In this document: in pieces, positions 2,402 to 22,575 of the stretch | Numbering within the stretch: position 1 is the first letter of the stretch | How the letters are laid out: each line of letters opens with the position of its first letter | Source of the DNA: a phage | DNA: 64,000 bases | Reading direction: 5' to 3' (one strand) | Assembly: GCA_028522875.1 (NCBI GenBank) | Contig: GCA_028522875.1_3659.1 | Notes under the pieces: model-generated | The model's input: the letters and a program-made list of their open reading frames with translations, nothing else | What the model was told of the DNA's origin: nothing | Databases searched by the model: none | Translations under genes and position numbers: made by a program

Positions 2402-2402
2402 G

Positions 2403-5000: not shown

Positions 5001-5003
5001 CAT

Positions 5004-5024
5004 AGGGGGCTGTTTGCCCCCTTT
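5004..5024 (+). terminator. candidate intrinsic terminator (short U tail)
   Basis: hairpin agggggc-tgttt-gccccct followed by ttc, directly after stop of 2403-5000. Confidence 0.35.
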
Positions 5025-5035
5025 CAGGAGAAAGA

Positions 5036-8000
5036 ATGGCTGATATTAAAGTTGTCAGAATTGAATCTCTTCCTGCCACTACCGCAGTGACAGAGGATGA
5101 TTACCTGGTTGTTCAACAACCAGACCTGACTCGTCGTGTAAAAATTGGCGATGTTGTCCATGTGGATGGGACTGTTTCTCATGTAATCTCCTTTAAGGAA
5201 GGTGGTAAGTTAAACGGCCCAATGGATTTTGCCTACTTCGAAGAGGAAGACCTCTACCTGCGTTGGAAAGGCGAATTTCCGCACACCGTTCCTGCACTAT
5301 CTTCACCGTACTCCGATGGTGGGATTACTGATGCTGCATGGATGGTATATACAGATCCATCATTAAGAGAGGAGCTGGAATCAACTATTGGCGCATCCAT
5401 GATTATGACAGCTGAAGGTCAGTCTGTCCAGGATGTAATGGATGTTACAGTTAAGACCGCCAACGATGCTAAAGCACTTGCACAGCGGGTAGATTTTGGT
5501 ACCGTGCACACTGTAGGCGATGTTATTCACCTTGTCAATTTTGTTGGCCCTGCAGTTATTGAAGAGGGAAGAACTACTAACTACCCTTCCGTAGCAGCTG
5601 GTGAAAAATTCCTGAACGGTGTGGTATCTCGTCGTGATACTACAACTGTTGATGGTATTTTCCGTGGCGCTACCTCCGGAGCTATGTATACCATTGCAGT
5701 AACCAACGGTGTAGCAACAACAAAAAGAATAGCACTTCGTGATGAATTTAAACGCCTAGAGGCAAACAACCCAACAAGAACCGTTATTCGTGCTGGTGAT
5801 GATGTAAACACAGCCGGGTACTTGCAGCTTGATGCAACAGGTCGTTGGGGCATGTGGAACCAACAGACATCTTCATGGCAACCTCTTGCTATAGAGCAAG
5901 GTGGTACAGGTGCCAGAGATGCCGCAGGTGCACGTATTAATTTAGGAGCTTTTTATAAACAACGTGCAGCCCTTGAGGCAAATTTCAATATTAACAATTT
6001 GACTGGCAATCAGGATGGTGTATACTACCAGCCCATGACTGCCAATGCCACCGAGGCAAATGGTTACCCAGCAGGTTCTGGTGCTGGTCACCTGATTGTT
6101 TGGCAGAACAATGCTAACGGCGGTGCAGGTTGTCGTCAGGAATACTATCCATTCTCTAACGTAGATGTTTGGTATTTGAGAACCTATCAGGCCAACACAA
6201 ATCAGTGGACTGCATGGCAGCCGATGGTCAGACCTCGTAACGATGATACCTTCAGATCTCATATCGGCCTTGGTAAAAACAACTCACCAGCCTTCGGGCA
6301 CCTTTACTTAGCTCAATACTCTGGAGATGTTAAATCTGCCTCAGGTATTCTCCATGGAGATAAATATAATACTGATGGTGTTCTTGAGCATGGTTATAGG
6401 ATCTACTCTGAGGTAAGAAACGACAATAAGGCTTGGTTGACAATCCACCTGCACAAAGGTGCAAAAGGATCTGAAACCCATAGATATTTAGGTTTCCGCG
6501 AAGACGGCGTGCTAGACTGCCCTAAATATATGCAGGTTGGGGATCTTACTGGTCAGCTGACAAACTGGGGACTCGGAGAGTGGATCCGTAGTTCAGGAGC
6601 AGAAAGAGGCTTCTGGGGATCCAAGAAAGCCGCCAAGATGGTCATCTGGGATGGTGGGATGGATGAATCCGGTAACGGCACTCTGGAATGGGGTGTTTAT
6701 AACAACCGGAAGGCCAAGTGGGAACCTTTACCGCAAGCCGCAGGTGGTACTGGAGCTACAACTTTGGCAGAGGCTCAGAATCTGTTTAGAGTTCCTATAG
6801 CTGCAGGCGTAAAAGATTTCTTAACGCTGCCAAGAACCGCAGGGATGGAAGATGGGAAATACTACCCGATTATAGTTAGAACAGATCCGTATTATGCTCC
6901 AACTACTGGCACCGATATTACCATAGTTACTAGGTCGTCATCTGGTGGTGACCCCATGAACTGTGCTACCTTACAGTGTCATTATAGAACTGGTGGGTGG
7001 ACAGATAGAGGGGACTCTTTCTACGGAGTAGTAAATTTCTACCAGAATGAAAAAGCAATTCTTGGGATGGTTGCTCCAACAAGGGGTAAACAAGAATATG
7101 TTGCTTTCTATGCAGAGGCGCGTGCTTTCCCTGTCAGCATATACGCAAGTAGAAATGTTTTAGAGGTGTTTACCAAAGAACAAGACTACCAGGTTGGTTC
7201 TGTAACAAACAATCAGGACGGTGTTAAGTTTTGTGCTCCGTTAGAGTCAGCAGACTTAAATCTTGCGATAAAGGGTGATAATGTAACTAATACCAGACCT
7301 CTTGCGGAGTTTAAAGGAACATCAGGTTTTTACACAGGCGGTGGTACTCAGTGGCACTACATCGGCACACCTGAACGCTATGCGGTGATGAGTAAAATGA
7401 CCATGCCTAAAGTTGAGCTATGGGCAGATGGTATCGACTACCTATGCCCTGGTAGTCAGACCACAAGGAAAGCACTGTTCTCTAATGCTGGATTCCAGGC
7501 AGCATCTGAAGGTACAGAGGACTTAATTAACAACACATTTACTTCCAAATGCGGCAAGGGTGCAGGTCTGAAAGGCCAGTCAGAGTTCAGGTCTACCCCA
7601 GAGGCTGGACAGGTAATTGTCAGAGATGTTGTTGGTTCCGCACATAAGTTCTTTAACTTCAACAAAGACGGCACATTCTACCCTCCTGGCGGTTATGTTT
7701 GCCAGACAGGTGCGGATTGGAACAATCAGTTTGGTAACACAAACCCGTCAAAAATAATGGCTGGTAATGTTAACGGACCTGAAGGTTCCATGGTTGTAGC
7801 AGGGTTGTCGGTTGGTTTTTCTGGAAATTATGCATTCCAGATGGCTGGTCGTCTTGATCAGTTATACACCAGGTCTATTGAGGGTGGTAATCATAGAGCG
7901 TGGAACAAGGTAATCCAACACCGTGGTCAAGGCTTGGGTAATAGCAATCTTAATGATTACAAAGCTGATCGTGAAGGTATTTATCATCAAGAGGCAAACT

Positions 8001-9481
8001 CTAACGCCACAGCCGAAAGAAATTACCCGCCTGGGCAGCAGATGGCTGGTACATTGATTGTACTCAGAAACTCTGCTAACGAGGGCACGGGCTGTATTCA
8101 GATCTACAAGATGTACCTTGGTGGAACATGGGAAAGGTATTATAATAACACTGGTAGTGGAATGGCTTGGAGTCCTTGGAAGAGAACAAGCTTCCCGGAA
8201 AGCACAACCGCCCCAGTTATGCCTGATCTTTGGTTACCTTTGACCTCCAACTTAAAACCTGCACTTGGCGAGGGTGAGATGGTATTCTCCAGACCATCTA
8301 CAGCAACATACTTTTCTAAACGTGGTGTGATGGTTACTGCCCAGAACGATCAGCCTAGGTTTGAAAGAGATGGTCTGCTTATCGAAGGGCAAAGGACAAA
8401 CCTGATGCTTAACAGTGAAGACCCGAGTAAATGGGGAGCCAGTCAACAGATTACTGTTGGTGGTACTGTAACAAACACTAACGGCACAAAAGGTGCAAGA
8501 TTTACAGTAAACACTGCATCCGGTGTGGAAACAACAGCGTTAAACCTTGCTACAGTTCCAGCCACCAGAGGTGCCGATGTAACAGGTGCTGAGAAATTCT
8601 GTACTGGGTCTATTATTGCAAGGGGAGGTAAAGCGAACCAGAGATTACGTGTAAGATTCGACATGTATGACGGATCCACCACAGTATTCCAAGGTGACGC
8701 TTATGTTAACCTGTCAACACTTGAAGTTAAAACAACAGGTGGTGCAGCTGGGGGAATTAAAGTAAAAGCTGAGAGATGGCAAACAGCTGGACCTGCTTGG
8801 GTAAGGATTGCCGCTACGTTTGAGGCAGTGGCCTCTGACAAGAATATCGGGTGCCAGTTCCAGATTTCTCCACCTGAAGGTGCTCAGCATGTTGTAGGAG
8901 ATTGGGTTGATGTTGCAATACCTCAATTTGAGCTAGGTTCTTGCGAGTCCTCGTTTATTCCCACAGGGTCTTCACCTGTAACTAGAGCGGCAGATCTTTG
9001 CAAATTTCCGATGACTGATAACTTAGCACCTAGACCGTTCACTATTGCCGCTACTGTGGATGCTAACTGGAGAGGTTGGGGAAAAGCTCCTAACGCAGCC
9101 CCTAGGGTTATAGACACAGAAGGACACCAGTCGGGCGCACCTTTTATCCTCGGGTTTGGTTCTGCAACAAATATTGCAGAGGATGGGTATCCATATTGTG
9201 ATATAGGAGGATCTAACCGTAGGGTGTATGAGATGTGTAAGGTACGTAAGTTAAGAATGGGGTTCAGAATAAAAGATGATGGTAAAACATGTTCTTTTGC
9301 TAATGGATTGATTAGCTCTGAAACGCAATCTTCTTGGGAGTTTCTTGCAGGAGGGGCTTTTATCAGGATAGGTGGTCAAACAGCATCTGGTGAAAGACAC
9401 CTGTTCGGGCACATTAAGGATATCAAGCTTTGGAACTCGTCTTTGACCGATACGCAACTTATGATGGAGAATATTGAATAA
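5036..9481 (+). CDS. large tail fibre / tailspike protein with conserved N-terminal anchor domain and C-terminal ConA/LamG-like lectin motif
   Basis: 1481 aa; RBS caggag; N-terminus paralogous to 1733-2401; C-terminus ...HLFGHIKDIKLWNSSLTDTQLMMENIE resembles LamG/ConA-like jelly-roll end motif. Confidence 0.55.
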   Translation: MADIKVVRIESLPATTAVTEDDYLVVQQPDLTRRVKIGDVVHVDGTVSHVISFKEGGKLNGPMDFAYFEEEDLYLRWKGEFPHTVPALSSPYSDGGITDAAWMVYTDPSLREELESTIGASMIMTAEGQSVQDVMDVTVKTANDAKALAQRVDFGTVHTVGDVIHLVNFVGPAVIEEGRTTNYPSVAAGEKFLNGVVSRRDTTTVDGIFRGATSGAMYTIAVTNGVATTKRIALRDEFKRLEANNPTRTVIRAGDDVNTAGYLQLDATGRWGMWNQQTSSWQPLAIEQGGTGARDAAGARINLGAFYKQRAALEANFNINNLTGNQDGVYYQPMTANATEANGYPAGSGAGHLIVWQNNANGGAGCRQEYYPFSNVDVWYLRTYQANTNQWTAWQPMVRPRNDDTFRSHIGLGKNNSPAFGHLYLAQYSGDVKSASGILHGDKYNTDGVLEHGYRIYSEVRNDNKAWLTIHLHKGAKGSETHRYLGFREDGVLDCPKYMQVGDLTGQLTNWGLGEWIRSSGAERGFWGSKKAAKMVIWDGGMDESGNGTLEWGVYNNRKAKWEPLPQAAGGTGATTLAEAQNLFRVPIAAGVKDFLTLPRTAGMEDGKYYPIIVRTDPYYAPTTGTDITIVTRSSSGGDPMNCATLQCHYRTGGWTDRGDSFYGVVNFYQNEKAILGMVAPTRGKQEYVAFYAEARAFPVSIYASRNVLEVFTKEQDYQVGSVTNNQDGVKFCAPLESADLNLAIKGDNVTNTRPLAEFKGTSGFYTGGGTQWHYIGTPERYAVMSKMTMPKVELWADGIDYLCPGSQTTRKALFSNAGFQAASEGTEDLINNTFTSKCGKGAGLKGQSEFRSTPEAGQVIVRDVVGSAHKFFNFNKDGTFYPPGGYVCQTGADWNNQFGNTNPSKIMAGNVNGPEGSMVVAGLSVGFSGNYAFQMAGRLDQLYTRSIEGGNHRAWNKVIQHRGQGLGNSNLNDYKADREGIYHQEANSNATAERNYPPGQQMAGTLIVLRNSANEGTGCIQIYKMYLGGTWERYYNNTGSGMAWSPWKRTSFPESTTAPVMPDLWLPLTSNLKPALGEGEMVFSRPSTATYFSKRGVMVTAQNDQPRFERDGLLIEGQRTNLMLNSEDPSKWGASQQITVGGTVTNTNGTKGARFTVNTASGVETTALNLATVPATRGADVTGAEKFCTGSIIARGGKANQRLRVRFDMYDGSTTVFQGDAYVNLSTLEVKTTGGAAGGIKVKAERWQTAGPAWVRIAATFEAVASDKNIGCQFQISPPEGAQHVVGDWVDVAIPQFELGSCESSFIPTGSSPVTRAADLCKFPMTDNLAPRPFTIAATVDANWRGWGKAPNAAPRVIDTEGHQSGAPFILGFGSATNIAEDGYPYCDIGGSNRRVYEMCKVRKLRMGFRIKDDGKTCSFANGLISSETQSSWEFLAGGAFIRIGGQTASGERHLFGHIKDIKLWNSSLTDTQLMMENIE

Positions 9482-9813
9482 TGAAAGAGCTTACGCTGGG
9501 CTTTAAGGGAAGAAGTGAGTTTGAAGATCTCATGGAGGAGATCGGGTTTGCCACTGATGAGGATTTGCAACAAAAGGTCTTTGTAGAGGTTGTTGGTTTT
9601 ATTTATAAAGAGACCGATCAAACTTATGAGGAAGAAGATGAGTTTGGTAACGCAGTATCATATCCTGTCGTTGTTCGTAGTGATATGTTCTATGTAGACC
9701 TTCTTATCCTGGACCAATCTGCCGTCGATGTTGTGACCAAATGGGGTACAGTTATCGAAGATCCTGGAAGACCTAATAGGTTCTCAACCCCCGCAGTAAC
9801 ACTGGAGGAATAA
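9481..9813 (+). CDS. hypothetical acidic protein (possible fibre chaperone by position)
   Basis: 110 aa, ATGA overlap with upstream fibre gene stop; acidic composition. Confidence 0.45.
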   Translation: MKELTLGFKGRSEFEDLMEEIGFATDEDLQQKVFVEVVGFIYKETDQTYEEEDEFGNAVSYPVVVRSDMFYVDLLILDQSAVDVVTKWGTVIEDPGRPNRFSTPAVTLEE

Positions 9814-9825
9814 ATAATAACCTAA

Positions 9826-9848
9826 CCCCCGCATAGCGGGGGTTTTTT
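9826..9848 (+). terminator. rho-independent terminator
   Basis: cccccgc-atag-gcggggg hairpin followed by tttttt. Confidence 0.65.
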
Positions 9849-9855
9849 GTTTATA

Positions 9856-9884
9856 TTGCGTATTACCTTAAAATTTGATAAAAT
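9856..9884 (+). promoter_or_regulatory. sigma70-like promoter TTGCGT-17-TAAAAT
   Basis: -35 TTGCGT 9856-9861, 17 nt spacer, -10 TAAAAT 9879-9884, upstream of gene starting 9913. Confidence 0.45.
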
Positions 9885-9912
9885 AGTGAAAAGAATTATT
9901 AAACTGGGGGTT

Positions 9913-10506
9913 AAAATGTTTATATGGGAAAGGCCACGATATCTCCCTGATATAAGGCTTGAACTTCTTGCAGATATAGTTAGGTTCAAAAGTCCATTCG
10001 GAGGAAAGGTACAGGAAGTTGTTTATGCAACACCTAACTGGAAAGGAACCCTTACTGTTGCCAATATCAGCGCCTCTCAGCTTATTGAGCTTAGAAATTT
10101 TATAGATAGTGTATATAAAGATGGGAACATATTCCTCATAAAAACATATGGTCACTCTGTAACAGCCAAAGAACCTATTGCTCTTGGACCAACAGGTAAC
10201 GATGATTATTTGAAAACAGTTGGTTGGGAACCCAATACAGATATAGCTAGAGCTGGGGATAAAATATCTGTCAATGATGAGTTAAAGGTTGTAACATCTA
10301 ATGTAAGAAGTGATGGCGTTGGTGCTGCGGTGATTAATATTCAACCTAGGTTGAGAAACCCGATTAAATCAGGAGATACAATGAAGATCCTTACAGAGTC
10401 TCCTAAAGGAAGATTCCATATCAGGGATATTTACAAGATAAAGCAAAAAGTTGATCAGATGGTCACAGGGGACAACATAATCATCAATTTCTTTGAGGAT
10501 TTTTAA
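9913..10506 (+). CDS. tail tip protein (lambda gpL / GTA g12-like position), hypothetical
   Basis: start moved to ATG 9913 (MFIWER, RBS ggggg) because track start 9847 lies inside terminator/promoter; first of a L-K-J-like gene set. Confidence 0.4.
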   Translation, partial: KMFIWERPRYLPDIRLELLADIVRFKSPFGGKVQEVVYATPNWKGTLTVANISASQLIELRNFIDSVYKDGNIFLIKTYGHSVTAKEPIALGPTGNDDYLKTVGWEPNTDIARAGDKISVNDELKVVTSNVRSDGVGAAVINIQPRLRNPIKSGDTMKILTESPKGRFHIRDIYKIKQKVDQMVTGDNIIINFFEDF

Positions 10507-10507
10507 T

Positions 10508-11059
10508 ATGATTAGAGCACCATTTGATAACTTATTTTTAGAAAAACTTGAGCAGGATCGTGTTGAGGTTATTATAGCAGCAAAACTAGAGCTGTCAACA
10601 GGGACTGTAAGATTGTGCTCAGGCACTGGCACAGTAATGATTGCTGGTCAATTGTTTGTTGGGATAGGTGGATCTGCAACAATAAGCGCTGTTACAGAAA
10701 AGGATGCTACAAACTTCGGATCCGTAGTAGCAACACTTAACGGATTTGACCCCAAATTTGTTGGGGATTTGCTAAAAACAGAATATGCAGGATGCCGGGC
10801 CACATTGTATATAACAGCAATGGAAAATGGTCTACCTGTGACTACAAATGGGCTGTTTGATGGCGTTATTACCGACATGGCGATCCACACAGGTGAAAAT
10901 AGTGCACTATCTATCTCCATATCTTCTATCTTCAACAGTTGGCTAAAAGGTTTCCCCGCAAGATACACAGAGGAAAGCCACAGATCCAACAATGATAACG
11001 ATAGATTTTTTAAATACGTTGACCAGGTTGCTAGTCGTCCAATTATCTGGGAGGTTTAA
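10508..11059 (+). CDS. tail protein, DUF2163-like (tentative)
   Basis: ATG 10508 with RBS gaggat; precedes NlpC/P60-like gene as in lambda/GTA tail tip clusters. Confidence 0.35.
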   Translation: MIRAPFDNLFLEKLEQDRVEVIIAAKLELSTGTVRLCSGTGTVMIAGQLFVGIGGSATISAVTEKDATNFGSVVATLNGFDPKFVGDLLKTEYAGCRATLYITAMENGLPVTTNGLFDGVITDMAIHTGENSALSISISSIFNSWLKGFPARYTEESHRSNNDNDRFFKYVDQVASRPIIWEV

Positions 11060-11485
11060 ATGAAGGCAAAACCACGGTGTGTGGATTGGCAAACCAAACT
11101 TTTAGAAGTTATTAACGAAGAGTCTGATAAGGTATTTGAGTGGGGAATTAGCGATTGCTGCACTTTTGCAGCTAAGTGTATTGATGCACAGTACGGTACA
11201 AACTTTATCATGGAGTTTGAGGGAGAATATAAGACAGAAATTGAAAGCAGGAGATTGTGCATTAGGAAATTTGGGACAACTTACTTGCCATCAATTTTTG
11301 ATAATTTTTTGGAAAGAAGGGATTCAAAAAAGCAGGTTCAGAGGGGAGATGTTGTAATATTTACTGGTAAAAATGGACCTACAGCCGGAATTTGGTGGGG
11401 AGGAATGGTGGTATCTAAAGGTAAGAAAGGCCTTGTATGGATAGACTTTTCCGATATTGAAGTTTTAGATGTTTGGGGGTTATAA
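11060..11485 (+). CDS. NlpC/P60-like cysteine peptidase (lambda gpK-like tail tip peptidase)
   Basis: 141 aa; RBS gggagg; candidate nucleophile in ...EWGISDCCTFAAKCID... and His-containing C-terminal part; immediately upstream of J-like protein. Confidence 0.4.
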   Translation: MKAKPRCVDWQTKLLEVINEESDKVFEWGISDCCTFAAKCIDAQYGTNFIMEFEGEYKTEIESRRLCIRKFGTTYLPSIFDNFLERRDSKKQVQRGDVVIFTGKNGPTAGIWWGGMVVSKGKKGLVWIDFSDIEVLDVWGL

Positions 11486-11487
11486 TA

Positions 11488-14400
11488 ATGCCTATTGCGT
11501 TGGTGGACTCCATCGTATCCTCTGCAAGGTCTTCAAGTTACGACTGGAATGCTTCAAAAGCTGCTCTTGCTGACAGTTTAAACACGGTGACAACAAGAAC
11601 GCTTGATAAGATTTTTGAAGGTAACAGAGCTTACCGTGGTCAACAAGAAAGAAAGCAACTATTAAGATCATCTGCCGCCCCTTGCACTGTGGTGTACGGA
11701 GAAACAAGATCCTCCGGTCTGCTATCTTTTGTTGAGCAAGATAGCAGCAAAACACTGCATACAGCAATTGTTCTTGCAAGTCATCCGTTGGAAAGTGTAA
11801 CAGATATTCTTATTGATGGCAATCCAATCTCTAAGTACGGAGATCTTGTAAGCTATGAGATTCACAATGACCCTAAGGTAGCAGATCAGTACATGAGGCA
11901 GCATTGCCCGTCTTGGTCTGTAGACATGATAGGCAGAGGACTGTGCTGGATCAGGGTTAGTTTTAAATTTGACCCAAACAAATTTCCATTCGGCCTTCCT
12001 AATGTTACAGTTCTTAAAAAGGGTAAAAAGGTTTACGATCCTCGAACAGGGAAAAATGTATACTCAAACAACGCAGCTTTGATTATCCTTGACTATCTGA
12101 GAGTTTACCTTAAATGCCCTGATAGTACTATAAACTGGGAATCGTTTAAAGAGGCCGCAAATATCTGTGACGAGATGGTGCAGAATGCTGACGGGACCAG
12201 CGAAAGAAGGTACACCATAAACGGAGAGTTTGACATGGATGAACCCCCAGCAAACATAATGACAGAAATGCTGAAAGCTTGCGGTGGTGATCTTTGTTAT
12301 GTTGCTGGTAAGTACGGCCTTTTAGTTGGTGCATATTATGGACCTGCAAGATACAGGCTTGGAGAAGAATGCGTTTCAGGTGAGGTTAAGATATACCCTG
12401 AAGCGTCTTTCGATAAAAGATCTAATACAATCACGGGTAGATTCATAAGCCCTGCAAAAGGGTATTCTGAGACAGACTTTCCTTCTGTTTTTGTCCCAGA
12501 GTGGGTGGAAAAGGACAAAGAGAGAAAAGTAGTAGATATCGATTACAGGTTCGTAACAAGTCCGTATCAGGCCCAAAGAATTTCTGCAATCTTCTTAAGA
12601 CGTGCCAGAGCTGGTAGGATTATCGAAGTTACGTGCAATATGAGAGGGTTCAAGTTTAAACCTGGTCATTATGTAACCATAGATCTGCCAAGTATTGGTG
12701 TTGTTGGTCAAGAGATGAGGGTGCTTGAGTGGGAATTTACAAAGAAAGGTGGCGTTAAGGTAAAACTACGCCAAGATGCTAAGGAGTGGAATGACGCAAC
12801 AGGTCAACTCCCAGATTCTGGTGACATAGATATTCCGGTCTCTCCGTCAGGTGTTGCACAACCTCAAAATTTTAGATACTCTGTACTACAGGCTGGAGAG
12901 CTAACTCACGGCGTTTTAGCTTGGGACAACGTTGGTGCTTACGCTTATAACATTGTTCAGGTTAAGAAGAATGGTGAAATAGTCTGGACAGCACAGACTG
13001 TCGAGCAGTTTGTGAGGGTTGAGGGTCTTACCCAGGGGTCATACACAGCCACGGTGGTAGCAACATCGTACAAAGGTGGGGTTTCTCCTGAAGCTTATTG
13101 CGAGTTCAATATTCAGGCACCAGAACCACCTGCATCTGTAGAGGTTAAGCAGGGGTATTTTGCAATCACACTTATACCTCACAGCAGAGACCTGGCGAGT
13201 GTTAGTACTCAGTACGATTTCTGGACTTCAGGCACAACACGGCTTGCAAGTACAGCCAACAATATTGTTGAGACACAAGCAACTCGAATGGGTATAGGAT
13301 CCACTTGGACCTCGGAGGGTTTGCAAAACGATAAAACCTATTACTGGTATATCAGGACAACAAATGCTTTTGGTTCATCTGCTTTTGTGGAGTGTGCAGC
13401 CCACTGTTACACATCCATAGAAGATCTTATGCCACAGATCGATGCTGAGTTCAAAAAGACAGAGACTTACAAAGAGCTTACCGCCAATCTCGATAATGCA
13501 GTCAAGGAAATGGATAAAAATGTTGGTGCAGTCAATGACCGTGTTACTAGCATTTTTGAAGAGCTTGGTGATACAATAGAGGGTGTTGTCAGAGAGACGA
13601 CAGAAAAATTTACAGGGGTTAATGGAGAAATTTCTGCCCTTAACAGTAAGCTGGTAGCAGCTCAGCAATCCTTTGACGATAAACTTGCAGCAGAGTCTGG
13701 TAGGCTTGGGTCACTAATCGAGACAACAAATAGATCAACCGTTGATCTTGTTAATCGTAAAACTCAAGCATTGAGTGAGCAAATAACTGCAACTCAAGGT
13801 ACTCTGCGGGAAGAGTTGAAGAACACTGAGAGCAAACTTAACTCCTCTATTCAAGAAACCAACAAGGCAACAACCGATCTGCTAAATAAGACTACGGAAG
13901 CTATTAAGCAGGATCTGGTGGCGGCTACAGGGAAGATTACCAAGCTGGAAGATGATGTGCAGAAAGAGGTTGCCAATCTGCAAGCATCTATTCAAGAAAC
14001 TAATAGTACAACAGTTGATCTTGTTAATAATACAGCCACAGCGATCCGTCAAGAACTTACCTCTGCAAAACAAGAAATTGTTGACGAAATGGGTAATATT
14101 GATGAGCTTAGGGCTACAGTATCTAATACCTCTAAAGCTGTAACAACACTTGAGGGTAAAATAGATGCTCAGTGGGGAGCTAAGATTCAGGTTGACAGTC
14201 ATGGTAATAAATATGTTGCAGGTATCCAGCTGGGCATGGAGGGGTCTGGGGGACAAGTTCAATCATACTTCATGGTTAGTGCAAACAACTTTGCGGTATA
14301 CAACCCCGGAAACGGAACAGCAACCCTTGCTTTCGCAATCAAGAACAACCAAGCGTTCTTGAAAGACGCTTTTATAGAGAATGGCACGATCTCCTCTGCC

Positions 14401-15087
14401 AAGATTGCACAAGAAATTTCGTCAAACAACTACGATGGCAACGGGTACCATAAATACGGTTGGTATATTAACAAGAACGGGCATGCCCAATTTATGGATG
14501 TGTGGGTGAAAGGCAACATTAACGCCAGTTCTGGTAACTTCACAGGGGCAGTTAACGCCACTAGTGGTACCTTCCGTGGAGATGTTTATGCCAATAATGG
14601 TAGCTTTAGAGGCACCATAGATGCAACCGGAGGTACATTCCGTGGTCGTGTAGAAGCTTCTGTTATCCGTGCTAACCAGTTTGAAGGTGCAATTGTTGCA
14701 CACAGGACTTACGGAGATTGTGCTCCAGTATATAACTCCCAGCAGAGGGTTTGCCGTTGGAGGTGGAGATACGTAGATAACGTTTCAGGTCAAGGTAAGA
14801 ACGTAACATTCTTCTTTAAACTGAACGGTACTCGTGCCAACTCCCAACTAAATGCGTGGATAGCTGGTCATCAACTCCTTGCTGGCAAGAAGTACGGAAA
14901 CGACAATGATGGCATGTGTGCAGTTGGGATAACAGGTCTAGGTGAACAGACTATAGACATTATTATTGAAATCTACACCCCGTGGTCAACGTCAAACGTG
15001 ACAGGTATTACAATATCCTGTCCTACTGTGGTTGTTAGTCGTTCTAACTCCAGCTTCCAGGGACCTTGGAACGAGTCTCACGACTAA
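11488..15087 (+). CDS. host specificity protein J-like (tail tip fibre) with FN3-like domain and coiled-coil/heptad region
   Basis: ~1200 aa; ATG 11488 with RBS ggggg; FN3-like segment (GSYTATVVATSYKGGVSPEAYCEFNIQAPEPP); long heptad-rich segment with repeated ...IQETN(K/S)(A/T)T(T/V)DL(L/V)N... units; GxxxG-rich C-terminal repeats. Confidence 0.55.
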   Translation: MPIALVDSIVSSARSSSYDWNASKAALADSLNTVTTRTLDKIFEGNRAYRGQQERKQLLRSSAAPCTVVYGETRSSGLLSFVEQDSSKTLHTAIVLASHPLESVTDILIDGNPISKYGDLVSYEIHNDPKVADQYMRQHCPSWSVDMIGRGLCWIRVSFKFDPNKFPFGLPNVTVLKKGKKVYDPRTGKNVYSNNAALIILDYLRVYLKCPDSTINWESFKEAANICDEMVQNADGTSERRYTINGEFDMDEPPANIMTEMLKACGGDLCYVAGKYGLLVGAYYGPARYRLGEECVSGEVKIYPEASFDKRSNTITGRFISPAKGYSETDFPSVFVPEWVEKDKERKVVDIDYRFVTSPYQAQRISAIFLRRARAGRIIEVTCNMRGFKFKPGHYVTIDLPSIGVVGQEMRVLEWEFTKKGGVKVKLRQDAKEWNDATGQLPDSGDIDIPVSPSGVAQPQNFRYSVLQAGELTHGVLAWDNVGAYAYNIVQVKKNGEIVWTAQTVEQFVRVEGLTQGSYTATVVATSYKGGVSPEAYCEFNIQAPEPPASVEVKQGYFAITLIPHSRDLASVSTQYDFWTSGTTRLASTANNIVETQATRMGIGSTWTSEGLQNDKTYYWYIRTTNAFGSSAFVECAAHCYTSIEDLMPQIDAEFKKTETYKELTANLDNAVKEMDKNVGAVNDRVTSIFEELGDTIEGVVRETTEKFTGVNGEISALNSKLVAAQQSFDDKLAAESGRLGSLIETTNRSTVDLVNRKTQALSEQITATQGTLREELKNTESKLNSSIQETNKATTDLLNKTTEAIKQDLVAATGKITKLEDDVQKEVANLQASIQETNSTTVDLVNNTATAIRQELTSAKQEIVDEMGNIDELRATVSNTSKAVTTLEGKIDAQWGAKIQVDSHGNKYVAGIQLGMEGSGGQVQSYFMVSANNFAVYNPGNGTATLAFAIKNNQAFLKDAFIENGTISSAKIAQEISSNNYDGNGYHKYGWYINKNGHAQFMDVWVKGNINASSGNFTGAVNATSGTFRGDVYANNGSFRGTIDATGGTFRGRVEASVIRANQFEGAIVAHRTYGDCAPVYNSQQRVCRWRWRYVDNVSGQGKNVTFFFKLNGTRANSQLNAWIAGHQLLAGKKYGNDNDGMCAVGITGLGEQTIDIIIEIYTPWSTSNVTGITISCPTVVVSRSNSSFQGPWNESHD

Positions 15088-15095
15088 CCTTTAAA

Positions 15096-15122
15096 GCCCC
15101 GCTTCGGCGGGGTTTATTTTTA
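15096..15122 (+). terminator. rho-independent terminator
   Basis: gccccgc-ttcg-gcggggt hairpin (UUCG loop) followed by ttatttttat. Confidence 0.65.
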
Positions 15123-15130
15123 TGCTCAGA

Positions 15131-15159
15131 TTGACTATTGTTACAAAATTTGGTAAAAT
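15131..15159 (+). promoter_or_regulatory. sigma70-like promoter TTGACT-17-TAAAAT
   Basis: -35 TTGACT 15131-15136, 17 nt spacer, -10 TAAAAT 15154-15159; upstream of baseplate J gene. Confidence 0.5.
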
Positions 15160-15192
15160 ACCTTGTAGAGATTTTCATACCGGAGGAGTGAC

Positions 15193-16683
15193 GTGGCTAA
15201 GTATGGATTGACAGAGGCTGGTTTCGTTATACCAACCCTAAATGACCTAATCGTTGAAACTAAGCAAAGCCTGATCCGTGCTTTTGGCGAAAACTTCAAC
15301 GTACAGAGTAACTCCGTTGCAGATAAGCTGACCACTATCTTCAACGAGCGAGAGTATCAACTTATTCTTATGGCAGCATCTGTATACGCATCACAGACGC
15401 TGTATGGGGCAGAAGGTATTTACCTAGACGAACTTCTTGGAAGACAAGGTATTTACCGAAGAGGCCGTTCTAAATCATCAGGTACCTGCCAGTTGACGAT
15501 CAACACAACTGTGCCGTACAATATGATTTATGATTCCAAAACTTATACGCTGGATAGTGGCAACTTTGTTCTTAGCAATGATGTGCAAGTGGCAGGGAAT
15601 CTTATTGCCCACAGAATAAATGCTCCAGACCTAAGGATTGGTAAATACAACTTTCAAATTACCAACCAGACAGATGGAAGTATCAAAACAAAAAGTTTGG
15701 TTTTAACAGATAAGGCTCTGGACTCTTCTGATCTGCCAAGCTTTTACGGAGAGATTAAGCAATTCATTGTCGATAATACAACCCTGTTGAACGACGATTT
15801 GATTCAGATCGATATGTTGACAGGAACGTTGTGGATAGGGTACAATTCGAATCTTGATCAAGTTGGACTTAATAGTAGGGTAGATTTCAGAGTATCCCCG
15901 ATTGTAGGGGAAAGAACCATCACCCTGGATGTTATCGCTAACGAGGCTGGTGAGCTGTCAAGAGAGGCAGAAACCGTGACAACAATGTCACCTACTCCCA
16001 GTGGATTTATCAAGCTTACCAACCGCGAAAGATTCAACGAGGGCAGGGATGTTGAGAAAGATTCCGAGTATCGCTTAAGAGCTTCCAGCACTAAACAGTT
16101 AACATCGAAGGCTACCCGTCCTGCAATCCTTAGCGCGGTAAGCGAGGTGAAAGGTGTTGAGAAAGTGAGAGTGTTCTCCAACAACACCGATAAAACTGAT
16201 GCTAAAGGTATACCTCCTTACAAGTTCCAAGTGGTTGTGTTTGGTGGTGCAACGGAGGACATTTGCCAAGCACTTTACCAAACTATAGCCTGTACGAACA
16301 GAACTTATGGTAATATTTTCTACGATGTAACTACATCTGACGGTCAAACTGAAAGAATTTATTATTCCAAGGCAAATACCTACCGCCTGGATGTAAGAAT
16401 TACCTACTCAGGTGCTGCGCTTTCCACAACCGAAAAAGATGCCATTGTAGAGGCTCTTTTGCAGGTTGTTAACGGACTGGATGTTGCAGATACGTTGTAC
16501 AATATCCAATTGGTTGGTGCTGCATCTGCTGCTGTGTCGATAGGTAGATTTAATAGACTGGTAATTCAAGTTAAACCTGTGGGGGCTTCTGATGAAGCTT
16601 ACACTGCAAACGATATTGTTGCAAACATGACCGAGGTGTTTGACCTCGATGAAAGTAATATAACTTTCCAACAAACTATTTAA
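15193..16683 (+). CDS. baseplate J-like protein (gp6/gp47/gpJ family)
   Basis: GTG start with RBS ggagg; N-terminal region ...LILMAASVYASQTLYGAEGIYLDELLGRQGIYRRGRSKSSGTCQLT matches conserved baseplate_J motif (A.g..Ld.lg...G..R..a..A.G.v.ft). Confidence 0.65.
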   Translation: MAKYGLTEAGFVIPTLNDLIVETKQSLIRAFGENFNVQSNSVADKLTTIFNEREYQLILMAASVYASQTLYGAEGIYLDELLGRQGIYRRGRSKSSGTCQLTINTTVPYNMIYDSKTYTLDSGNFVLSNDVQVAGNLIAHRINAPDLRIGKYNFQITNQTDGSIKTKSLVLTDKALDSSDLPSFYGEIKQFIVDNTTLLNDDLIQIDMLTGTLWIGYNSNLDQVGLNSRVDFRVSPIVGERTITLDVIANEAGELSREAETVTTMSPTPSGFIKLTNRERFNEGRDVEKDSEYRLRASSTKQLTSKATRPAILSAVSEVKGVEKVRVFSNNTDKTDAKGIPPYKFQVVVFGGATEDICQALYQTIACTNRTYGNIFYDVTTSDGQTERIYYSKANTYRLDVRITYSGAALSTTEKDAIVEALLQVVNGLDVADTLYNIQLVGAASAAVSIGRFNRLVIQVKPVGASDEAYTANDIVANMTEVFDLDESNITFQQTI

Positions 16684-16694
16684 GGCGGCGAGAT

Positions 16695-17381
16695 ATGGCA
16701 GAGATTAAGTCGGATGTTAACCACATCCACACTCTGCCAGATTTTGTTCAGGGAGGTCTTGACTACCTGCCTGGAGATTTTCTGGCTGAGAAGGTTAATT
16801 TAGTCACATTCTTAACCGTGTACCTTAAAAGGTTGGAGGATGTTGATAAGATGCTGGTAGGTTTGGCTGAAGGAAGATTGCTTAATAATGCCAGCGGAAG
16901 ATACCTTGACGAAGTTGGTAATCAACTCGGTATTCTTAGGAATGGACTTTCAGATGCTGATTTTCGTGCCACACTAATTATTCAGCAGGCCGCAGCATCA
17001 AGGGGCGGGACTCGCGAAGATGTCATCTCCACCTTGCGACAATTGTTCGGAAGAAACAATTTCGATACGTGGAAAGGAGACAACTTCAGGTTTGACATAA
17101 ATATTAGAAAAACTTGCTTTGACATATTGCAGTCTATTGATCAGATCTTAGACATGCTACCACTGCCTTGTCATTTGCGTCTTACAGAATCGCAAGGGCA
17201 AGCTTTTGGTTTTGAAGGTGACTCTACAGCTCTTGGCTTCGGATCAGTGTGGGAAGAAAACCAATCCGGAGTTGGTGGGCTGGCTACTTTGCTGTATGTT
17301 CCTGACGTAAGACCTGATTGGGACACCACAACCATTTATTGTGAAAGTATTACAGTAAACGCAACTAGACAGGAGGGTTAA
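16695..17381 (+). CDS. baseplate/tail protein I-like (P2 gpI / XkdU DUF2313-like)
   Basis: 228 aa; segment LGILRNGLSDADFRATLIIQQAAASRGGTREDVISTLRQLFG resembles the kR.li..a....kGT...v...l family signature; directly downstream of J. Confidence 0.45.
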   Translation: MAEIKSDVNHIHTLPDFVQGGLDYLPGDFLAEKVNLVTFLTVYLKRLEDVDKMLVGLAEGRLLNNASGRYLDEVGNQLGILRNGLSDADFRATLIIQQAAASRGGTREDVISTLRQLFGRNNFDTWKGDNFRFDINIRKTCFDILQSIDQILDMLPLPCHLRLTESQGQAFGFEGDSTALGFGSVWEENQSGVGGLATLLYVPDVRPDWDTTTIYCESITVNATRQEG

Positions 17382-19453
17382 TGGCAACAGCTGTTTTTAA
17401 ACCTTACCGTGATTACTCTACAATGGCTGCACGGTTTCATTACCGCACAGTTCAGGATACTGCCGTTCCTGGTAGGGATTATGATCATGTTGAGGGCGAT
17501 ATAACTATCCCAGTTGGGGCAACCAGTATTGAAATCCCAGTGGAAATTGTTGACAAATTACCCAACAGGTTACCAAGAAGCTTCTTTATGGAGTTTTCAT
17601 CAAAATCTCAAGGGGTGATGATTGGGACACAAAGGGCGAAATGTACAATAGTTTCAGATGAGAATCTTGACAGAATATCTTGGGATACTGTCGAGGAGAG
17701 AATGTTTCACCCAAGATATTGGGTTACAACCACTCAGCAGACTGAAAGTACCTGTATTGTTGCAGATGACAACTGTTGTATTAACCGTTTAGTGTCAAGA
17801 ACATATGGAGGTATGGCTGGGTGCATTTGGGAAACAGTTGACAAGTATGACCATTTCGGTATTGGGTTTGATGATCACTATGAGATGAGAAACACCAAGC
17901 TTTGGTTCAGAATGTCAATAACCAATGCCAGCAACTTCTCCACTCCTGAAAAGATGATTATGACTGTAGACCTTGTTGATGGTACAATCATCTATGTTCC
18001 TTTAGCTCAATATGCTGTCAGCATCTCAGAGGATAAGAATGTTGCAGAGATTCATATTGATTTCGAGGACTGCGTCGGGATGGATCAGAACAACAACATG
18101 ATGGGTGTTGATCCTCGACAGGTGAGAAGAATTTTAATACCGCTCATGCCTAAAGACTGGGTAAGTAATAGCACAGACCCGAGAACGGAAAATGTAGAGT
18201 GTGAGTTGCGCCTAGATCTGCTTCAGCCAGACACGGGCTGGAAAATGATGCAACTTAACAATATTCAGGTTAAAGAGCACGACGTTGGGATCTGCACCGC
18301 ATATGACGATATGTGGAACGTATCTCCTTTAAGGGTGTTGAACAATATCAAGCGTCTGGGCTATACCGGAACCATAAACCATTATGTTGGTATGAGTCAT
18401 TATTATGACTACACATGGTCAGGAACCCAATGGTCTATAAACAGAACAGGGGCGCTAAACGCTGCAGCTTATAAATGGCATGATGATTTTATGTACAATG
18501 CCAAACGACATAACTTCGACGTTATGCAGTCTGTAAGTTTTGAGCTTTACAGCGATGCCTGCCCGTTGGAATGGACCCAAAGAGACTGGAATGATAACTA
18601 CGCTAAAACAGGATATACACCTTGTAGCTACCTCCTGTCTCCAACCATTGAAGAGGGTATGAATTTCCTTACTGCAGTATTTAAGAATTTTGCATCAGCC
18701 GCTATGAGAAACAACCTGCCAGTGATTATGCAGGTTGGTGAACCGTGGTGGTGGTTCAATACCGATACTCGTAGACCTTGTATTTATGATTACCCTACAA
18801 AACAGGCGTTTTATGATGAGACAGGCGAGTATGCCTTAGATATTGGGACTATTGACGATCCTAAAACTGGCGGTGTTTACGACAAGTATGTAGCATTTTG
18901 TCGTGGTAAGCTTGGCGCTCGTATTGCGGCTATTTCAAAGGCAATAAAGGCACACGCTGCATCAGCTCAGATGACAGCTCTGCTGTTTTTCCCAACCATT
19001 ATGGAAACCGAGCTTACGCAAAAGCTGAACCTTGCTGACCAATATAAAAAAGAAGCAGGTGCTCTTGATTTCTTCTGCACTGAGTGTTACGATTGGGTGA
19101 TGCAGGGAGGTATTGAAAAGGCAAAAGAGTCTGTAAACATACCTATCGTTAAGTTAGGTTGGCAACCGTCTGAAATACAATACCTTGCAGGGTTCGTTCC
19201 TAGTAAAGAGCTTGCTCCGGTATATGGATACGACCCAACCAGGAATTACCAAGAATTTTTATGGAGATGTATTTGCGGAAACATGGCAACTATAGAGTAT
19301 AGATACCCTGAGGTAAAACAGTATGTGTGGGCATACCCGCAAGTAATGTCTGACAGCATCACTGTTACCGCTAGAGATTCTACCGTGCTTCATATGGGGC
19401 AGGTTGCTCTGAAAGGGTATGTAGAGGATGTTGTCCCGCCAGACTTCTCATAA
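17381..19453 (+). CDS. tail-associated protein with N-terminal Calx-beta-like domain (function unknown)
   Basis: 690 aa; ATGA overlap with upstream gene; N-terminal FHYRTVQDTAVPGRDYDHVEGDITIPVGATSIEIPVEIVDKLPNRLPRSFFMEF resembles Calx-beta. Confidence 0.4.
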   Translation: MATAVFKPYRDYSTMAARFHYRTVQDTAVPGRDYDHVEGDITIPVGATSIEIPVEIVDKLPNRLPRSFFMEFSSKSQGVMIGTQRAKCTIVSDENLDRISWDTVEERMFHPRYWVTTTQQTESTCIVADDNCCINRLVSRTYGGMAGCIWETVDKYDHFGIGFDDHYEMRNTKLWFRMSITNASNFSTPEKMIMTVDLVDGTIIYVPLAQYAVSISEDKNVAEIHIDFEDCVGMDQNNNMMGVDPRQVRRILIPLMPKDWVSNSTDPRTENVECELRLDLLQPDTGWKMMQLNNIQVKEHDVGICTAYDDMWNVSPLRVLNNIKRLGYTGTINHYVGMSHYYDYTWSGTQWSINRTGALNAAAYKWHDDFMYNAKRHNFDVMQSVSFELYSDACPLEWTQRDWNDNYAKTGYTPCSYLLSPTIEEGMNFLTAVFKNFASAAMRNNLPVIMQVGEPWWWFNTDTRRPCIYDYPTKQAFYDETGEYALDIGTIDDPKTGGVYDKYVAFCRGKLGARIAAISKAIKAHAASAQMTALLFFPTIMETELTQKLNLADQYKKEAGALDFFCTECYDWVMQGGIEKAKESVNIPIVKLGWQPSEIQYLAGFVPSKELAPVYGYDPTRNYQEFLWRCICGNMATIEYRYPEVKQYVWAYPQVMSDSITVTARDSTVLHMGQVALKGYVEDVVPPDFS

Positions 19454-19465
19454 TCAGGAGATAAA

Positions 19466-20506
19466 ATGTCAAAACCTAGTTTTCCATTAGAGATTTGGGC
19501 AGAGGAGGATCAGGTTCTGCCTAACACCCACAGACAGAACAGGCTACGCCCGATTGATGATTTGTGGAGAAAAGGTTGGGATCTTGGTCAAAAGCCCTCA
19601 TGTGAAGAACTTAACTATATTTTCAATATGCTCGGAACTTGGGCAAAATACATTGCTGACGAGCAGATCCCCGCTCAAGAAGGCCGTTATCTGGTACGTG
19701 ATAATAACTTGAGTGATCTTTTGAACATTCCTGTTGCCCGTAGAAACCTTGGGATTATTACTAAGGAAGAAGCAGACGCCAGGTATGTAAAAGTTACAGG
19801 TGATACAATGACAGGCCCGTTGGGTTTGCAACGTATCAACTTTAAAGCTGCCGAGACAGATAAGGCTTGGATAGAGACAACTATTGGCCCAGATAAGACA
19901 ACTCTCGACTTTGGGCTAAGTGATAATACTGGGTCGTTTGATGATGGTGGTACATCTACAGTAGATGCGTTTCGTTGGAGATTCCAGCCAACTCAGCCGG
20001 ATATTAATCCAGAGTTCACTTTGATGTACCTTAACGCGATCACGGCTAACCGTGCGCTGTTGAAAGTGGTCGGCAATGTTGAAGTTGTCGATAACATGAG
20101 GTGCAATAACCTTACTATCAGCAATACAGCAACATTCACCAACTGTAATGTGGCTAGTCAGTTGACGACTGGGTCAGTGTATGTTAATGGAGGTGCAAGT
20201 TGTGACAGTATGGTTGTAAGAAGTCAGCACTGTGTTGTCGGTAACAGAAATGTGGTGCGCTCTGTGAATGGAGTGACGGCTAACGGTAACGGTGATGTAA
20301 CAATCACTATCCCGCAGACAGGTGTGCAAGACATCAGAATCGGTGCAAGACTTGTTGACGGCGTTTCCGAATCTCCAATTCGCAACGGCTACGTTGTCAC
20401 AGGCTGGCATTTCGGTGACAAAAAAGAGATGCGTGGTTCAACCTACTGGGCAGGACCTTTACAAAAACTTGTAAACGGTCAATGGATCACTGTTAATTAT
20501 GCATAG
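19466..20506 (+). CDS. tail fibre tip / adhesin paralog A
   Basis: 346 aa; RBS caggag; shares N- and C-termini with 21521-22564 (M.KP..PL.IWA..D.VL.NT ... W.G..QKLVNGQWIT..YA) with divergent centre. Confidence 0.55.
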   Translation: MSKPSFPLEIWAEEDQVLPNTHRQNRLRPIDDLWRKGWDLGQKPSCEELNYIFNMLGTWAKYIADEQIPAQEGRYLVRDNNLSDLLNIPVARRNLGIITKEEADARYVKVTGDTMTGPLGLQRINFKAAETDKAWIETTIGPDKTTLDFGLSDNTGSFDDGGTSTVDAFRWRFQPTQPDINPEFTLMYLNAITANRALLKVVGNVEVVDNMRCNNLTISNTATFTNCNVASQLTTGSVYVNGGASCDSMVVRSQHCVVGNRNVVRSVNGVTANGNGDVTITIPQTGVQDIRIGARLVDGVSESPIRNGYVVTGWHFGDKKEMRGSTYWAGPLQKLVNGQWITVNYA

Positions 20507-20520
20507 ATCGGAGGACTAGC

Positions 20521-21105: not shown

Positions 21106-21116
21106 GAGGAGGTGTT

Positions 21117-21431
21117 GTGGAGTTGGATTTGGCGGCATTGTACGGTATCTGCATGGGTACCGTTGTCCCGATCTGTGTATGGGCTTTCAACCAGTGGCAC
21201 ACCAAATGGAAAGGCATTTCCAAGAGGTTAGATGAACTGGAGAAAGACCTCATCTTAGTGAAAAACAGTATGGTTACAAAAGATAAACTTGATTCCGTTA
21301 TCGAGACCCGGTTAAGCAAGCTAGAGGCCGATATTAACGACCTTAAGCAGGATGTCAGGACAGATGTCTCCGGTATCCGAGCTGATGTACAAAAGATTTT
21401 GCACATGCTCGTAGAGCATAGTAAAAGGTAA
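21117..21431 (+). CDS. small membrane-anchored coiled-coil protein
   Basis: GTG start with RBS agaggagg; hydrophobic N-terminal segment (ALYGICMGTVVPICVWAF) then heptad-like charged region. Confidence 0.4.
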   Translation: MELDLAALYGICMGTVVPICVWAFNQWHTKWKGISKRLDELEKDLILVKNSMVTKDKLDSVIETRLSKLEADINDLKQDVRTDVSGIRADVQKILHMLVEHSKR

Positions 21432-21440
21432 ACAAAGGTC

Positions 21441-21470
21441 AGAACGGAAAGGACTCCGTTCTTGCATTTT
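21441..21470 (+). terminator. rho-independent terminator
   Basis: agaacgga-aaggac-tccgttct hairpin followed by tgcattttgttct. Confidence 0.5.
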
Positions 21471-21490: not shown

Positions 21491-21520
21491 AGTCCTAAGG
21501 AATTTTCTCAGGAGAACGCG

Positions 21521-22564: not shown

Positions 22565-22575
22565 AAAGAGGGTAA

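Follow-up and report, generated by a model that had tools for sequence, protein, structure and literature searches.

A siphovirus-type tail tip gene set in a Vequintavirus and the exchange of its assembly half as a block

In a 64,000-nucleotide (nt) stretch of phage DNA (contig GCA_028522875.1_3659.1 of assembly GCA_028522875.1), hereafter called the window, we analyzed a set of four genes that lies between baseplate genes of a contractile tail and encodes a Dit-like (distal tail) protein, a gpL-like hub adaptor, a DUF6950 protein and a gpJ-type central tail fibre. The window derives from a Vequintavirus, an rV5-like myovirus of Escherichia coli. Our analysis suggests, with a probability that we put at roughly 0.7, that the set is a complete siphovirus-type tip module, which was acquired by an ancestor of Vequintavirus and builds an extra J-type adsorption device. 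In addition, the window holds a second allele of this module's assembly half, which diverged long ago and was brought in by recombination. Both the complete siphovirus tip in a phage with a contractile tail and the block-wise exchange of alleles deserve follow-up. The rV5-like phages are therapy candidates and rank among the E. coli phages that are isolated most often, and reading four of their conserved late genes as a transplanted siphovirus tail tip provides a testable hypothesis for one of their adsorption devices that is still unassigned. The set would also show clearly how a structural module of several proteins crossed the divide between siphoviruses and myoviruses.

The set corresponds gene by gene to a siphophage tail tip

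Outside Vequintavirus, the closest relatives of the J-like protein were found in Seuratvirus siphophages; the alignment covers 81% of its length at an identity of ~53%. Two of these phages, SLUR76 and SD04, have behind the tape measure gene the genes for proteins of 194, 194, 144 and 1040 amino acids (aa), and pairwise BLASTP of the window proteins against those of SLUR76 gave identities of 31, 38, 48 and 54%, in this order (E-values from 1e-26 to 0). Overall, the four proteins are 30-57% identical, with their order kept, to the products of the genes that follow the tape measure in Seuratvirus and other siphophages. The complete four-gene order directly after the tape measure gene is present in SLUR76, SD04, 9g, Serratia phage Tlacuache, Roseobacter phage CRP-821 and Pseudomonas phage phiPSA1. 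It is kept in Yersinia phage PY54 and Vibrio phage K396 as well, with extra open reading frames (ORFs) between the gpL-like and the DUF6950 genes, and in Acinetobacter phage D0 the set follows the tape measure gene, but no separate Dit gene is annotated. Members of the Dit-like family are encoded by the first gene past the tape measure gene in eight siphophages.

The window set thus consists of four homologous genes in the fixed order of the Queuovirinae/PY54-type module. In the tips of Queuovirinae (Seurat, SLUR76, 9g), PY54, phiPSA1 and CRP-821, the same four families follow each other with sizes of ~195, 190, 135-145 and 1000-1200 aa, and the J proteins of Queuovirinae-type tips have the hub, immunoglobulin-like (Ig) and tail-tip-fibre domains in common with the J-like protein of the window. 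What differs is the position. The siphophage set stands after the tape measure gene and forms the tip on the tail axis, whereas the window set lies more than 9 kilobases (kb) past the hub and spike genes in a late operon of its own. The placement immediately after the tape measure that goes with an on-axis, non-contractile tip is not found in the window: genes for the tube initiator, hub, spike and sheath initiator and three fibre genes stand between the tape measure gene and the set.

Predicted functions of the four proteins

The four genes are tightly packed, either abutting or 1-2 nt apart (Table 1). The ORF finder proposed longer versions with TTG starts; we set the ATG starts according to homologues and to gene calls on public contigs. 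On this basis the Dit-like gene begins 3 nt later than position 9913, where the initial annotation, made from the sequence alone, had let the set begin.

The J-like protein has hub domains, two Ig/FN3 domains, a coiled coil, a tail-tip fibre domain and an HK97-type C-terminal domain, and hence the combination of hub region, Ig-like domains and C-terminal tail-tip fibre domain that marks gpJ-type proteins. It matched phrog_31 (“central tail fiber J”) over residues 148-1062 (E 4.9e-163) and the Pfam families Ig_J_second (7e-32, 110 bits) and Phage_Tail_Tip (1.7e-38, 131.9 bits); matches to Ig_J (25.7 bits) and Phage-tail_3 (18.2 bits) were just under the cut-off. Among PDB sequences, lambda J (2e-27) and the fibres of T1 and of the F2 pyocin were found, and the last 170 aa aligned end to end with the C-terminus of HK97 gpJ (30% identity, E 8e-9). 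The size of 1.2 kb initially given for this protein has to be corrected to 1.2 thousand residues, i.e. 3.6 kb.

The Dit-like protein matched phrog_1302 (“distal tail protein”, 7.8e-45); no Pfam family and no PDB sequence was matched. Its homologues are dominated by a single Pseudomonas prophage clade, and because of the resulting shallow alignment the AlphaFold2 (AF2) model is poor (predicted local distance difference test score, pLDDT, of 61; template modelling score of ~0.35). The top ten Foldseek matches of this model in the PDB were all to pb9, the two-domain Dit of T5 or DT57C (8e-8 to 4e-5), and they were aligned over the full length.

For the hub adaptor, a homologue search with the single sequence returned only three near-identical proteins, so that an alignment-seeded search was needed. 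The AF2 model, built from a 75-sequence alignment, reached a pLDDT of 75 and displays the fold of a tube-like hub domain. Foldseek related it to the N-terminus of T5 pb3 (1.5e-7), JBD30, lambda gpL (8iyk_L, 8e-5), T1 and Chi, and further to the RcGTA (gene transfer agent, GTA) virion chain 6tba_7A of 292 aa (6e-4), which we take to be g13, and to VgrG/gp27 hubs. At the sequence level, the protein matched phrog_2048 (“tail protein”, 3e-64). Pfam scans revealed no family of its own; PF09931 (baseplate-hub N-terminal attachment domain), presumably of the g13 type, was weakly matched by two of the nine adaptor family members. In lambda gpL, a C-terminal cysteine cluster binds an iron-sulfur cluster. 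No cysteine is invariant or nearly so in either the 9- or the 75-sequence adaptor alignment, and the protein ends at 183 aa; since the family has no conserved cysteines, the adaptor lacks an iron-sulfur site of the gpL type. Among PDB sequences, neither sequence nor profile searches with the three small proteins gave a match.

The third protein belongs to DUF6950 (PF22262; 7.6e-33, 113.9 bits at a cut-off of 27 bits), as do all nine homologues. Its match to NLPC_P60 stayed below threshold (E 0.032, 14.6 bits compared to a cut-off of 23 bits), and four of the nine relatives likewise matched this family weakly. NlpC/P60 peptidases have a catalytic cysteine in a D-C-S/C motif and a catalytic histidine after a strand of the G-D-hydrophobic type. 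The D-C motif (DCC; D32-C33) is invariant among nine DUF6950 family members. The position after their conserved RGD-hydrophobic strand, which we assume to be the site of the catalytic histidine, is occupied by T, A, G, S or V, and by histidine in none of the nine. Because this histidine is missing from the expected position, peptidase activity of the DUF6950 protein is doubtful. The protein is distantly NlpC/P60-like, and the word peptidase in its initial designation is not supported.

A comparison with well-studied tails places the set more precisely. The T5 proteins that match best by structure are pb9 for the 196-aa protein and, for the 183-aa protein, pb3 with its N-terminal part; sequence similarity was detectable for neither of these two small proteins. 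A single pb3 chain spans what the window splits between the 183-aa protein and J, and T5 is not known to have a DUF6950 gene in the corresponding position. With lambda and HK97, the window shares Ig_J, Ig_J_second and Phage_Tail_Tip in J, the gpL fold match and an NlpC/P60-like gene before J. Unlike lambda, it has no Pfam match to gpM, gpL, gpK or gpI, no MPN domain and no gpI gene, and its Dit-like protein has the size of pb9 (196 aa), not that of gpM. The genes g12-g15 of RcGTA (Dit, hub, peptidase and megatron) follow a comparable four-gene logic with comparable sizes, but the 292-aa RcGTA chain has a C-terminal part that is missing from the 183-aa adaptor. GTA-related Pfam families were not matched by the Dit-like protein and only weakly or below threshold by the other three (PF09931, NLPC_P60 and Phage-tail_3). 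The assignments that the initial annotation had offered as tentative therefore survive profile and fold searches (phrog_1302, the Foldseek hub matches and phrog_31), and its term “lambda/GTA-like” is right in that this is a tip module, which in detail stands nearer to the Queuovirinae/PY54/T5 type.

Origin of the set

The DNA from 9400 to 15200 found matches in 118 phage records, nearly all of them rV5-like myoviruses of ~135-140 kb (Vequintavirus). We analyzed the distribution of the set with the gpL-like protein as a tblastn query and obtained two identity groups with nothing between 60% and 80%. The upper group comprised 118 records at 80-90% identity; among those listed, most are Vequintavirus-type genomes of 129-144 kb, and all are labelled Escherichia or Campylobacter phage. 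The lower group comprised 147 records below 60% identity, which, among those listed, are all siphophages of 30-84 kb. The flanking wedge gene is common to 517 myovirus records, compared to the 118 that have the gpL-like protein at 80-90%. As for the labels, ~18-22 GenBank records (MG0656xx) titled “Campylobacter phage” hold Vequintavirus sequence with the same identity as the E. coli phages; the probable reason is a wrong label or a contaminant assembly.

PVP-SE1, which belongs to the same subfamily, matches the window gene for gene except that its third fibre gene adjoins the wedge gene and the set is missing. At the phi92 locus, the flanking genes have homologues, but the four set genes do not. 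The published model of the phi92 baseplate contains hub, spike, sheath initiator, plug, wedges and fibres, and nothing that resembles Dit or J (PMC13450770). For W70, the published protein table gives consecutive ORF numbers to the two proteins that carry the wedge and sheath initiator PHROGs, so that the set is missing there as well (PMC11370258). The interval between the sheath initiator and the wedge genes is a general hot spot of insertion and deletion, its contents differing in phi92, PVP-SE1, W70 and rV5.

Acquisition is supported by three observations: the siphophage homologues are syntenic, the gpL-like protein occurs, among the records listed, in one myovirus identity band, and PVP-SE1 and phi92 are collinear without the set. 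The most economical explanation of these sequence data would be that the Vequintavirus lineage gained the set once, from a siphophage and into a hot spot for adsorption genes. An ancestor of Vequintavirus probably took up the set horizontally from a siphophage of the Queuovirinae/PY54 kind; the contractile baseplate that received it, between its sheath initiator and wedge genes, would otherwise have been self-sufficient, and the set would then have been domesticated as a late operon. The mosaic tail and the modular acquisition proposed in the initial annotation are supported in this way by siphophage synteny, by the phyletic pattern and by the absence of the set from PVP-SE1 and phi92; the comparison of synteny with related phages that it had suggested gave the module order in siphophages and the gap in these two myoviruses.

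Alternatively, the set could be ancestral to the supergroup of rV5, phi92 and PVP-SE1 and have been lost repeatedly, or it could have moved from a myovirus to siphophages. The hot spot between the sheath initiator and wedge genes fits with such losses, and two deeply diverged alleles in Vequintavirus-type genomes indicate that the set is old there. We nevertheless consider this history very improbable, given that numerous siphophage groups of gamma- and alphaproteobacteria, unrelated to each other, have homologues in the canonical position behind the tape measure, that among the listed records of myovirus size the gpL-like protein falls into one tight identity band, and that the solved baseplates of relatives were modelled without the set. 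A low G+C content of the three small genes (37.6-41.1% compared to 42.5-46% for the other tabulated genes) was also considered as a sign of foreign origin and set aside as too weak.

In rV5 (gp40-gp37) and FFH2 (ORF39-36), the locus, the protein sizes, the terminator and the late promoters are as in the window. The GenBank record of rV5 already notes that ORFs 37-40 resemble PY54 proteins, and the names “distal tail protein” and “central tail fiber J” are found in today's annotations. As the set is conserved throughout the genus and already annotated, the genes themselves are not new. In our literature searches, we came across no publication in which the set is recognized as a tip module of siphovirus type.

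Transcription signals

The initial annotation had assigned the set a terminator and a promoter of its own on each side, and we could confirm both. The two intrinsic terminators that bracket the set (9824-9844 and 15094-15115) are the sole strong plus-strand terminator matches within positions 1-20000, and the second begins 7 nt past the stop codon of J. About 10-15 nt after each of them follows a promoter-like sequence of the type TTGNNN-17-TAAAAT with an upstream TG. The late-promoter motif of rV5, TGNTAAAATA, occurs four times in the window (0.9 expected) and is present after each bracketing terminator, while the 14-mer AAATTTGNTAAAAT has two occurrences in the 64 kb (0.27 expected), both at the bracketing promoter-like sites. 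Where they overlap, the window sequence is identical to both published entries for rV5 P036. Kropinski et al. had listed the same elements for rV5, the terminator under the name t041 and the late promoters under P040 and P036 (PMC3606486, Table S4). The set is therefore predicted to be a late operon of its own, which runs from terminator and late promoter through the downstream terminator. On the minus strand, a perfect 12/12 sigma-70 consensus (TTGACA-16-TATAAT with TG) is located at 10598-10571 within the gene of the gpL-like protein; since neither FFH2 nor rV5 has conserved it, it is probably due to chance.

A diverged allele exchanged as a block

Between FFH2 and rV5, the set proteins compared here show 100% identity. 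The window proteins differ from theirs, with identities of 85% for Dit, 87% for the gpL-like protein, 57% for DUF6950 and 86% for J residues 1-650, and for the gpL-like protein none of the 118 high-identity phage records exceeded 90%. At the DNA level, the best full-length identity of the stretch 9400-15200 to any phage record is ~84%. The divergence is concentrated in a block (~9000-13500; Table 1) in which identity to FFH2 amounts to 64-85%, compared to 95-100% over positions 1 to ~5400 and 13500-24600; in the 1481-aa fibre gene between (5400-9000), it is 75-93%. The right breakpoint falls within J, at the start of the coiled coil, where identity to FFH2 jumps back to ~100%. FFH2 thus differs from the window by a divergent allele from Dit to J residue 650, while the C-terminal halves of J are ~100% identical. 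Separate from this block, a second mosaic patch with 75-82% identity to FFH2 was observed at 7200-8100 inside the 1481-aa fibre gene.

Among the window, FFH2 and rV5, the 1279-aa and 1199-aa forms of J differ solely in the coiled coil, and the last ~250 residues are 88-100% identical. The final 150 aa of the window J are unrelated to the Seuratvirus tip (12-19% identity). The window alleles are as distant from the siphophage homologues as the alleles of FFH2 and rV5 are.

The proportion of synonymous differences (pS) to FFH2 is 0.71-0.81 in the block, i.e. saturated, compared to 0.09-0.15 in the spike, the wedge and the C-terminal half of J. The ratios of nonsynonymous to synonymous divergence (dN/dS) in the block are 0.02 for the gpL-like gene, 0.03 for J residues 1-650, 0.13 for DUF6950 and 0.24 for the upstream 110-aa ORF (orf110). 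For Dit, synonymous sites are too saturated for dN/dS; the proportion of nonsynonymous differences (pN) is 0.10 at a pS of 0.81. Judged from these estimates, the set is under strong purifying selection. Likewise at the level of sequence comparison, Dit, the adaptor, DUF6950 and the hub/Ig part of J have been exchanged as one block, while the coiled coil and tip of J stay ~100% identical. What appears to be new here is this divergent allele of the assembly half, with saturated synonymous divergence (dS) and a dN/dS of 0.02-0.13. Together with the breakpoint in J, it maps the parts that are likely to contact each other as opposed to the part that can be re-used, which is useful for the engineering of fibres.

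These data also bear on the idea that the four genes have no function, being the remains of a decaying module or neighbours by chance. The missing histidine in DUF6950 at the expected catalytic position and the lack of a known virion location would agree with it. It is, however, effectively refuted by the selection analysis, that is, by saturated synonymous sites at a dN/dS of 0.02-0.13; in addition, the listed Vequintavirus-type records and 24 further contigs have intact ORFs, the late promoter and terminators are conserved, and peptides of gp37, the rV5 orthologue of J, were found in virions.

The Dit allele of the window is present, with intact ORFs, on these 24 public unannotated or assembly contigs. 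There it is paired either with the 1481-aa fibre and orf110 or with a 1273-1274-aa fibre that has an S74 chaperone domain, without orf110. We had considered orf110 as a fifth member of the module and rejected this because the same Dit also occurs with the S74 fibre in its absence. As orf110 is missing where the fibre has the 1273-1274-aa Peptidase_S74 form, it goes with the upstream fibre allele, which suggests that it is a separate chaperone or a partner of the tip of the 1481-aa fibre.

Role in the virion

If the proteins assemble as in siphophages, a Dit ring, a trimer of the adaptor and a trimer of J, the latter through its hub domains, would come together and yield an extra J-type fibre of low copy number. 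Its invariant HK97-like C-terminal tip might contact a conserved structure of the host surface, and the fibre would be one more device in a multi-fibre adsorption apparatus. That this apparatus is unusually complex, as the initial annotation had put it, is already the textbook view of this group of phages. Because the tail axis, where a gpJ-type protein would sit and close the tube, is expected to be filled by the hub and the HxH spike, and the baseplates of relatives are complete without the set, the complex would have to be located off-axis or be borne by another fibre or tail protein; a homologue of the lambda gpV-like tube protein (phi92 gp152), which could seat a Dit ring, was not found in the window. 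Complex formation in the virion, its position and its role in receptor binding are what we infer from these relationships.

Several points weigh against an extra J-type device of this kind. A Dit hexamer normally docks on the ring of the tail tube around the tape measure, neither of which is available off-axis, and confidence in the Dit model is low (pLDDT 61). The left edge of the recombination block lies upstream of the module's own terminator, so that the exchange is not strictly module-shaped. The mass spectrometry (MS) support for rV5 gp37 in virions is thin (4 peptides and 5 spectra, compared to 4 spectra for the tail tube in the same run), the same run also lists non-structural proteins, and gp38-gp40 have no entry in parts 1, 3 and 4 of the four-part MS table. 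We found no particle structure of a Vequintavirus to which the four proteins were assigned and no experiment that locates them there, and cryo-electron microscopy of Bas49 and Bas54 resolved three of nine annotated fibres near the baseplate, to none of which the J-like protein was assigned (PMC12143355).

Some of these findings would be explained if J alone were present in the virion, as a conventional lateral fibre anchored by its N-terminus, while the Dit-like, gpL-like and DUF6950 proteins were assembly factors or chaperones that are discarded, like some tip assembly proteins of lambda. It is consistent with this that gp37 is the sole one of the four listed in the three parts of the MS table named above, that the BASEL annotators use the label “lateral tail fiber protein” and that DUF6950 evolves much faster than the other proteins (57% identity between alleles, dN/dS 0.13). 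The RBPseg study, too, noted in Vequintavirinae a class with a “central tail fiber”-like N-terminus and grouped this protein with the fibres (PMC12143355). We consider this explanation unlikely. Dit and gpL-type proteins are stoichiometric structural parts of the solved tips that our models matched (T5, lambda, T1 and Chi), purifying selection on the Dit- and gpL-like proteins is as strong as on the J hub, and a shotgun run that yielded just 4 spectra for the tail tube can easily overlook small proteins.

The acquired tip module as a source of an extra J-type device hence remains our preferred interpretation. In a more far-reaching version, which we put forward only tentatively, virions would carry a fully assembled siphovirus-style tip, possibly including DUF6950, as an off-axis or fibre-borne organelle, and its assembly half would form a co-adapted cassette that is swapped between lineages without regard to the half that binds the receptor. 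If true, this would be a hybrid organelle that no solved phage structure has shown.

Flanking genes and further observations

The flanking genes encode a contractile baseplate of the phiTE/phi92 type, with an HxH spike, a sheath initiator and a wedge homologous to solved components (Table 1). The spike matched those of phiTE (7e-62) and phi92 (gp138, 5e-18) among PDB sequences. The wedge genes gave a Baseplate_J match in Pfam and matched phiTE wedge 2 (2.6e-158) and phi92 gp145 (1e-55); the pair was also matched by tblastn against phi92 gp145/gp146. The spike with HxH apex and the gp25-like and baseplate J-like genes of the initial annotation thus proved to be homologues of phiTE and phi92 components, including the GHTHS motif of the spike. 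The description of the set as embedded between baseplate genes is correct in that such genes flank it, but ~8 kb (1733-9813), with three fibre or tail genes and the 110-aa ORF, separate it from the gp25-like gene.

Table 1 Features of the window discussed in the text
Feature	Position	Strand	Remarks
Putative distal tail protein (Dit), T5 pb9 type	9916-10506	+	196 aa; phrog_1302
gpL / pb3-N-terminal / GTA g13-N-like hub adaptor	10508-11059	+	183 aa; phrog_2048
DUF6950 protein, distantly NlpC/P60-like	11060-11485	+	141 aa; PF22262
gpJ-type central tail fibre / tip attachment protein	11488-15087	+	1199 aa; phrog_31
Recombination block	~9000-13500	+	Fibre 3' end, orf110, Dit, gpL-like, DUF6950, J residues 1-650
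Intrinsic terminator, ends upstream fibre/orf110 unit	9824-9844 (to 9851 with T run)	+	9-bp G+C-rich stem; corresponds to rV5 t041
Promoter-like site	9856-9885	+	TTGCGT-17-TAAAAT, extended -10, holds rV5 late motif TGATAAAATA; corresponds to rV5 P040
Intrinsic terminator, ends four-gene unit	15094-15115 (to 15123 with T run)	+	9-bp stem
Promoter-like site for wedge genes	15131-15160	+	TTGACT-17-TAAAAT, motif TGGTAAAATA; corresponds to rV5 P036
Hub, 3' end	3-317	+	
Central spike, HxH apex	317-994	+	PF18352; C-terminal GHTHS motif
Sheath initiator	1007-1723	+	PDB sequence matches phiTE (5e-61), phi92 gp139
Three fibre or tail genes	1733-9481	+	
110-aa ORF (orf110)	9481-9813	+	phrog_1361
Two baseplate wedge genes	15193-16683, 16695-17381	+	Homologues of phi92 gp145/gp146
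N4 gp65-type TIM-barrel protein	17381-19453	+	690 aa; PF23844/PF23845, 1e-79
Two paralogous short tail fibres with lambda-Tfa-like assembly protein between	19466-20506, 20521-21105, 21521-22564	+	Fibres phrog_4465

According to the FFH2 locus, the tape measure gene is located beyond the left end of the window. The 1481-aa upstream ORF had first been read as the tape measure; this was rejected, as it is a fibre with a Tail_spike_N domain. The fibre proteins encoded at 1733-2401 and 5036-9481 both begin with a Tail_spike_N domain of the CBA120 TSP1 / G7C gp66 type, which points to a putative branched attachment system for fibres and tailspikes as in Ackermannviridae and G7C.

The protein downstream of the wedge genes (17381-19453) combines an N-terminal domain of the N4 gp65 “non-contractile tail sheath” type with TIM-barrel domains and is 42% identical to phi92 gp142; a 2026 preprint proposed its family as an NGR glycan receptor binder. 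The second of the phrog_4465 short fibres has a late-promoter motif of its own at 21482. Further downstream, a terminator at 30297-30318 marks the end of the gene for a 1878-aa Ig-like protein and corresponds to rV5 t026/t027. It coincides with a change of sign in GC skew and with the switch to minus-strand genes (~30300-38000).

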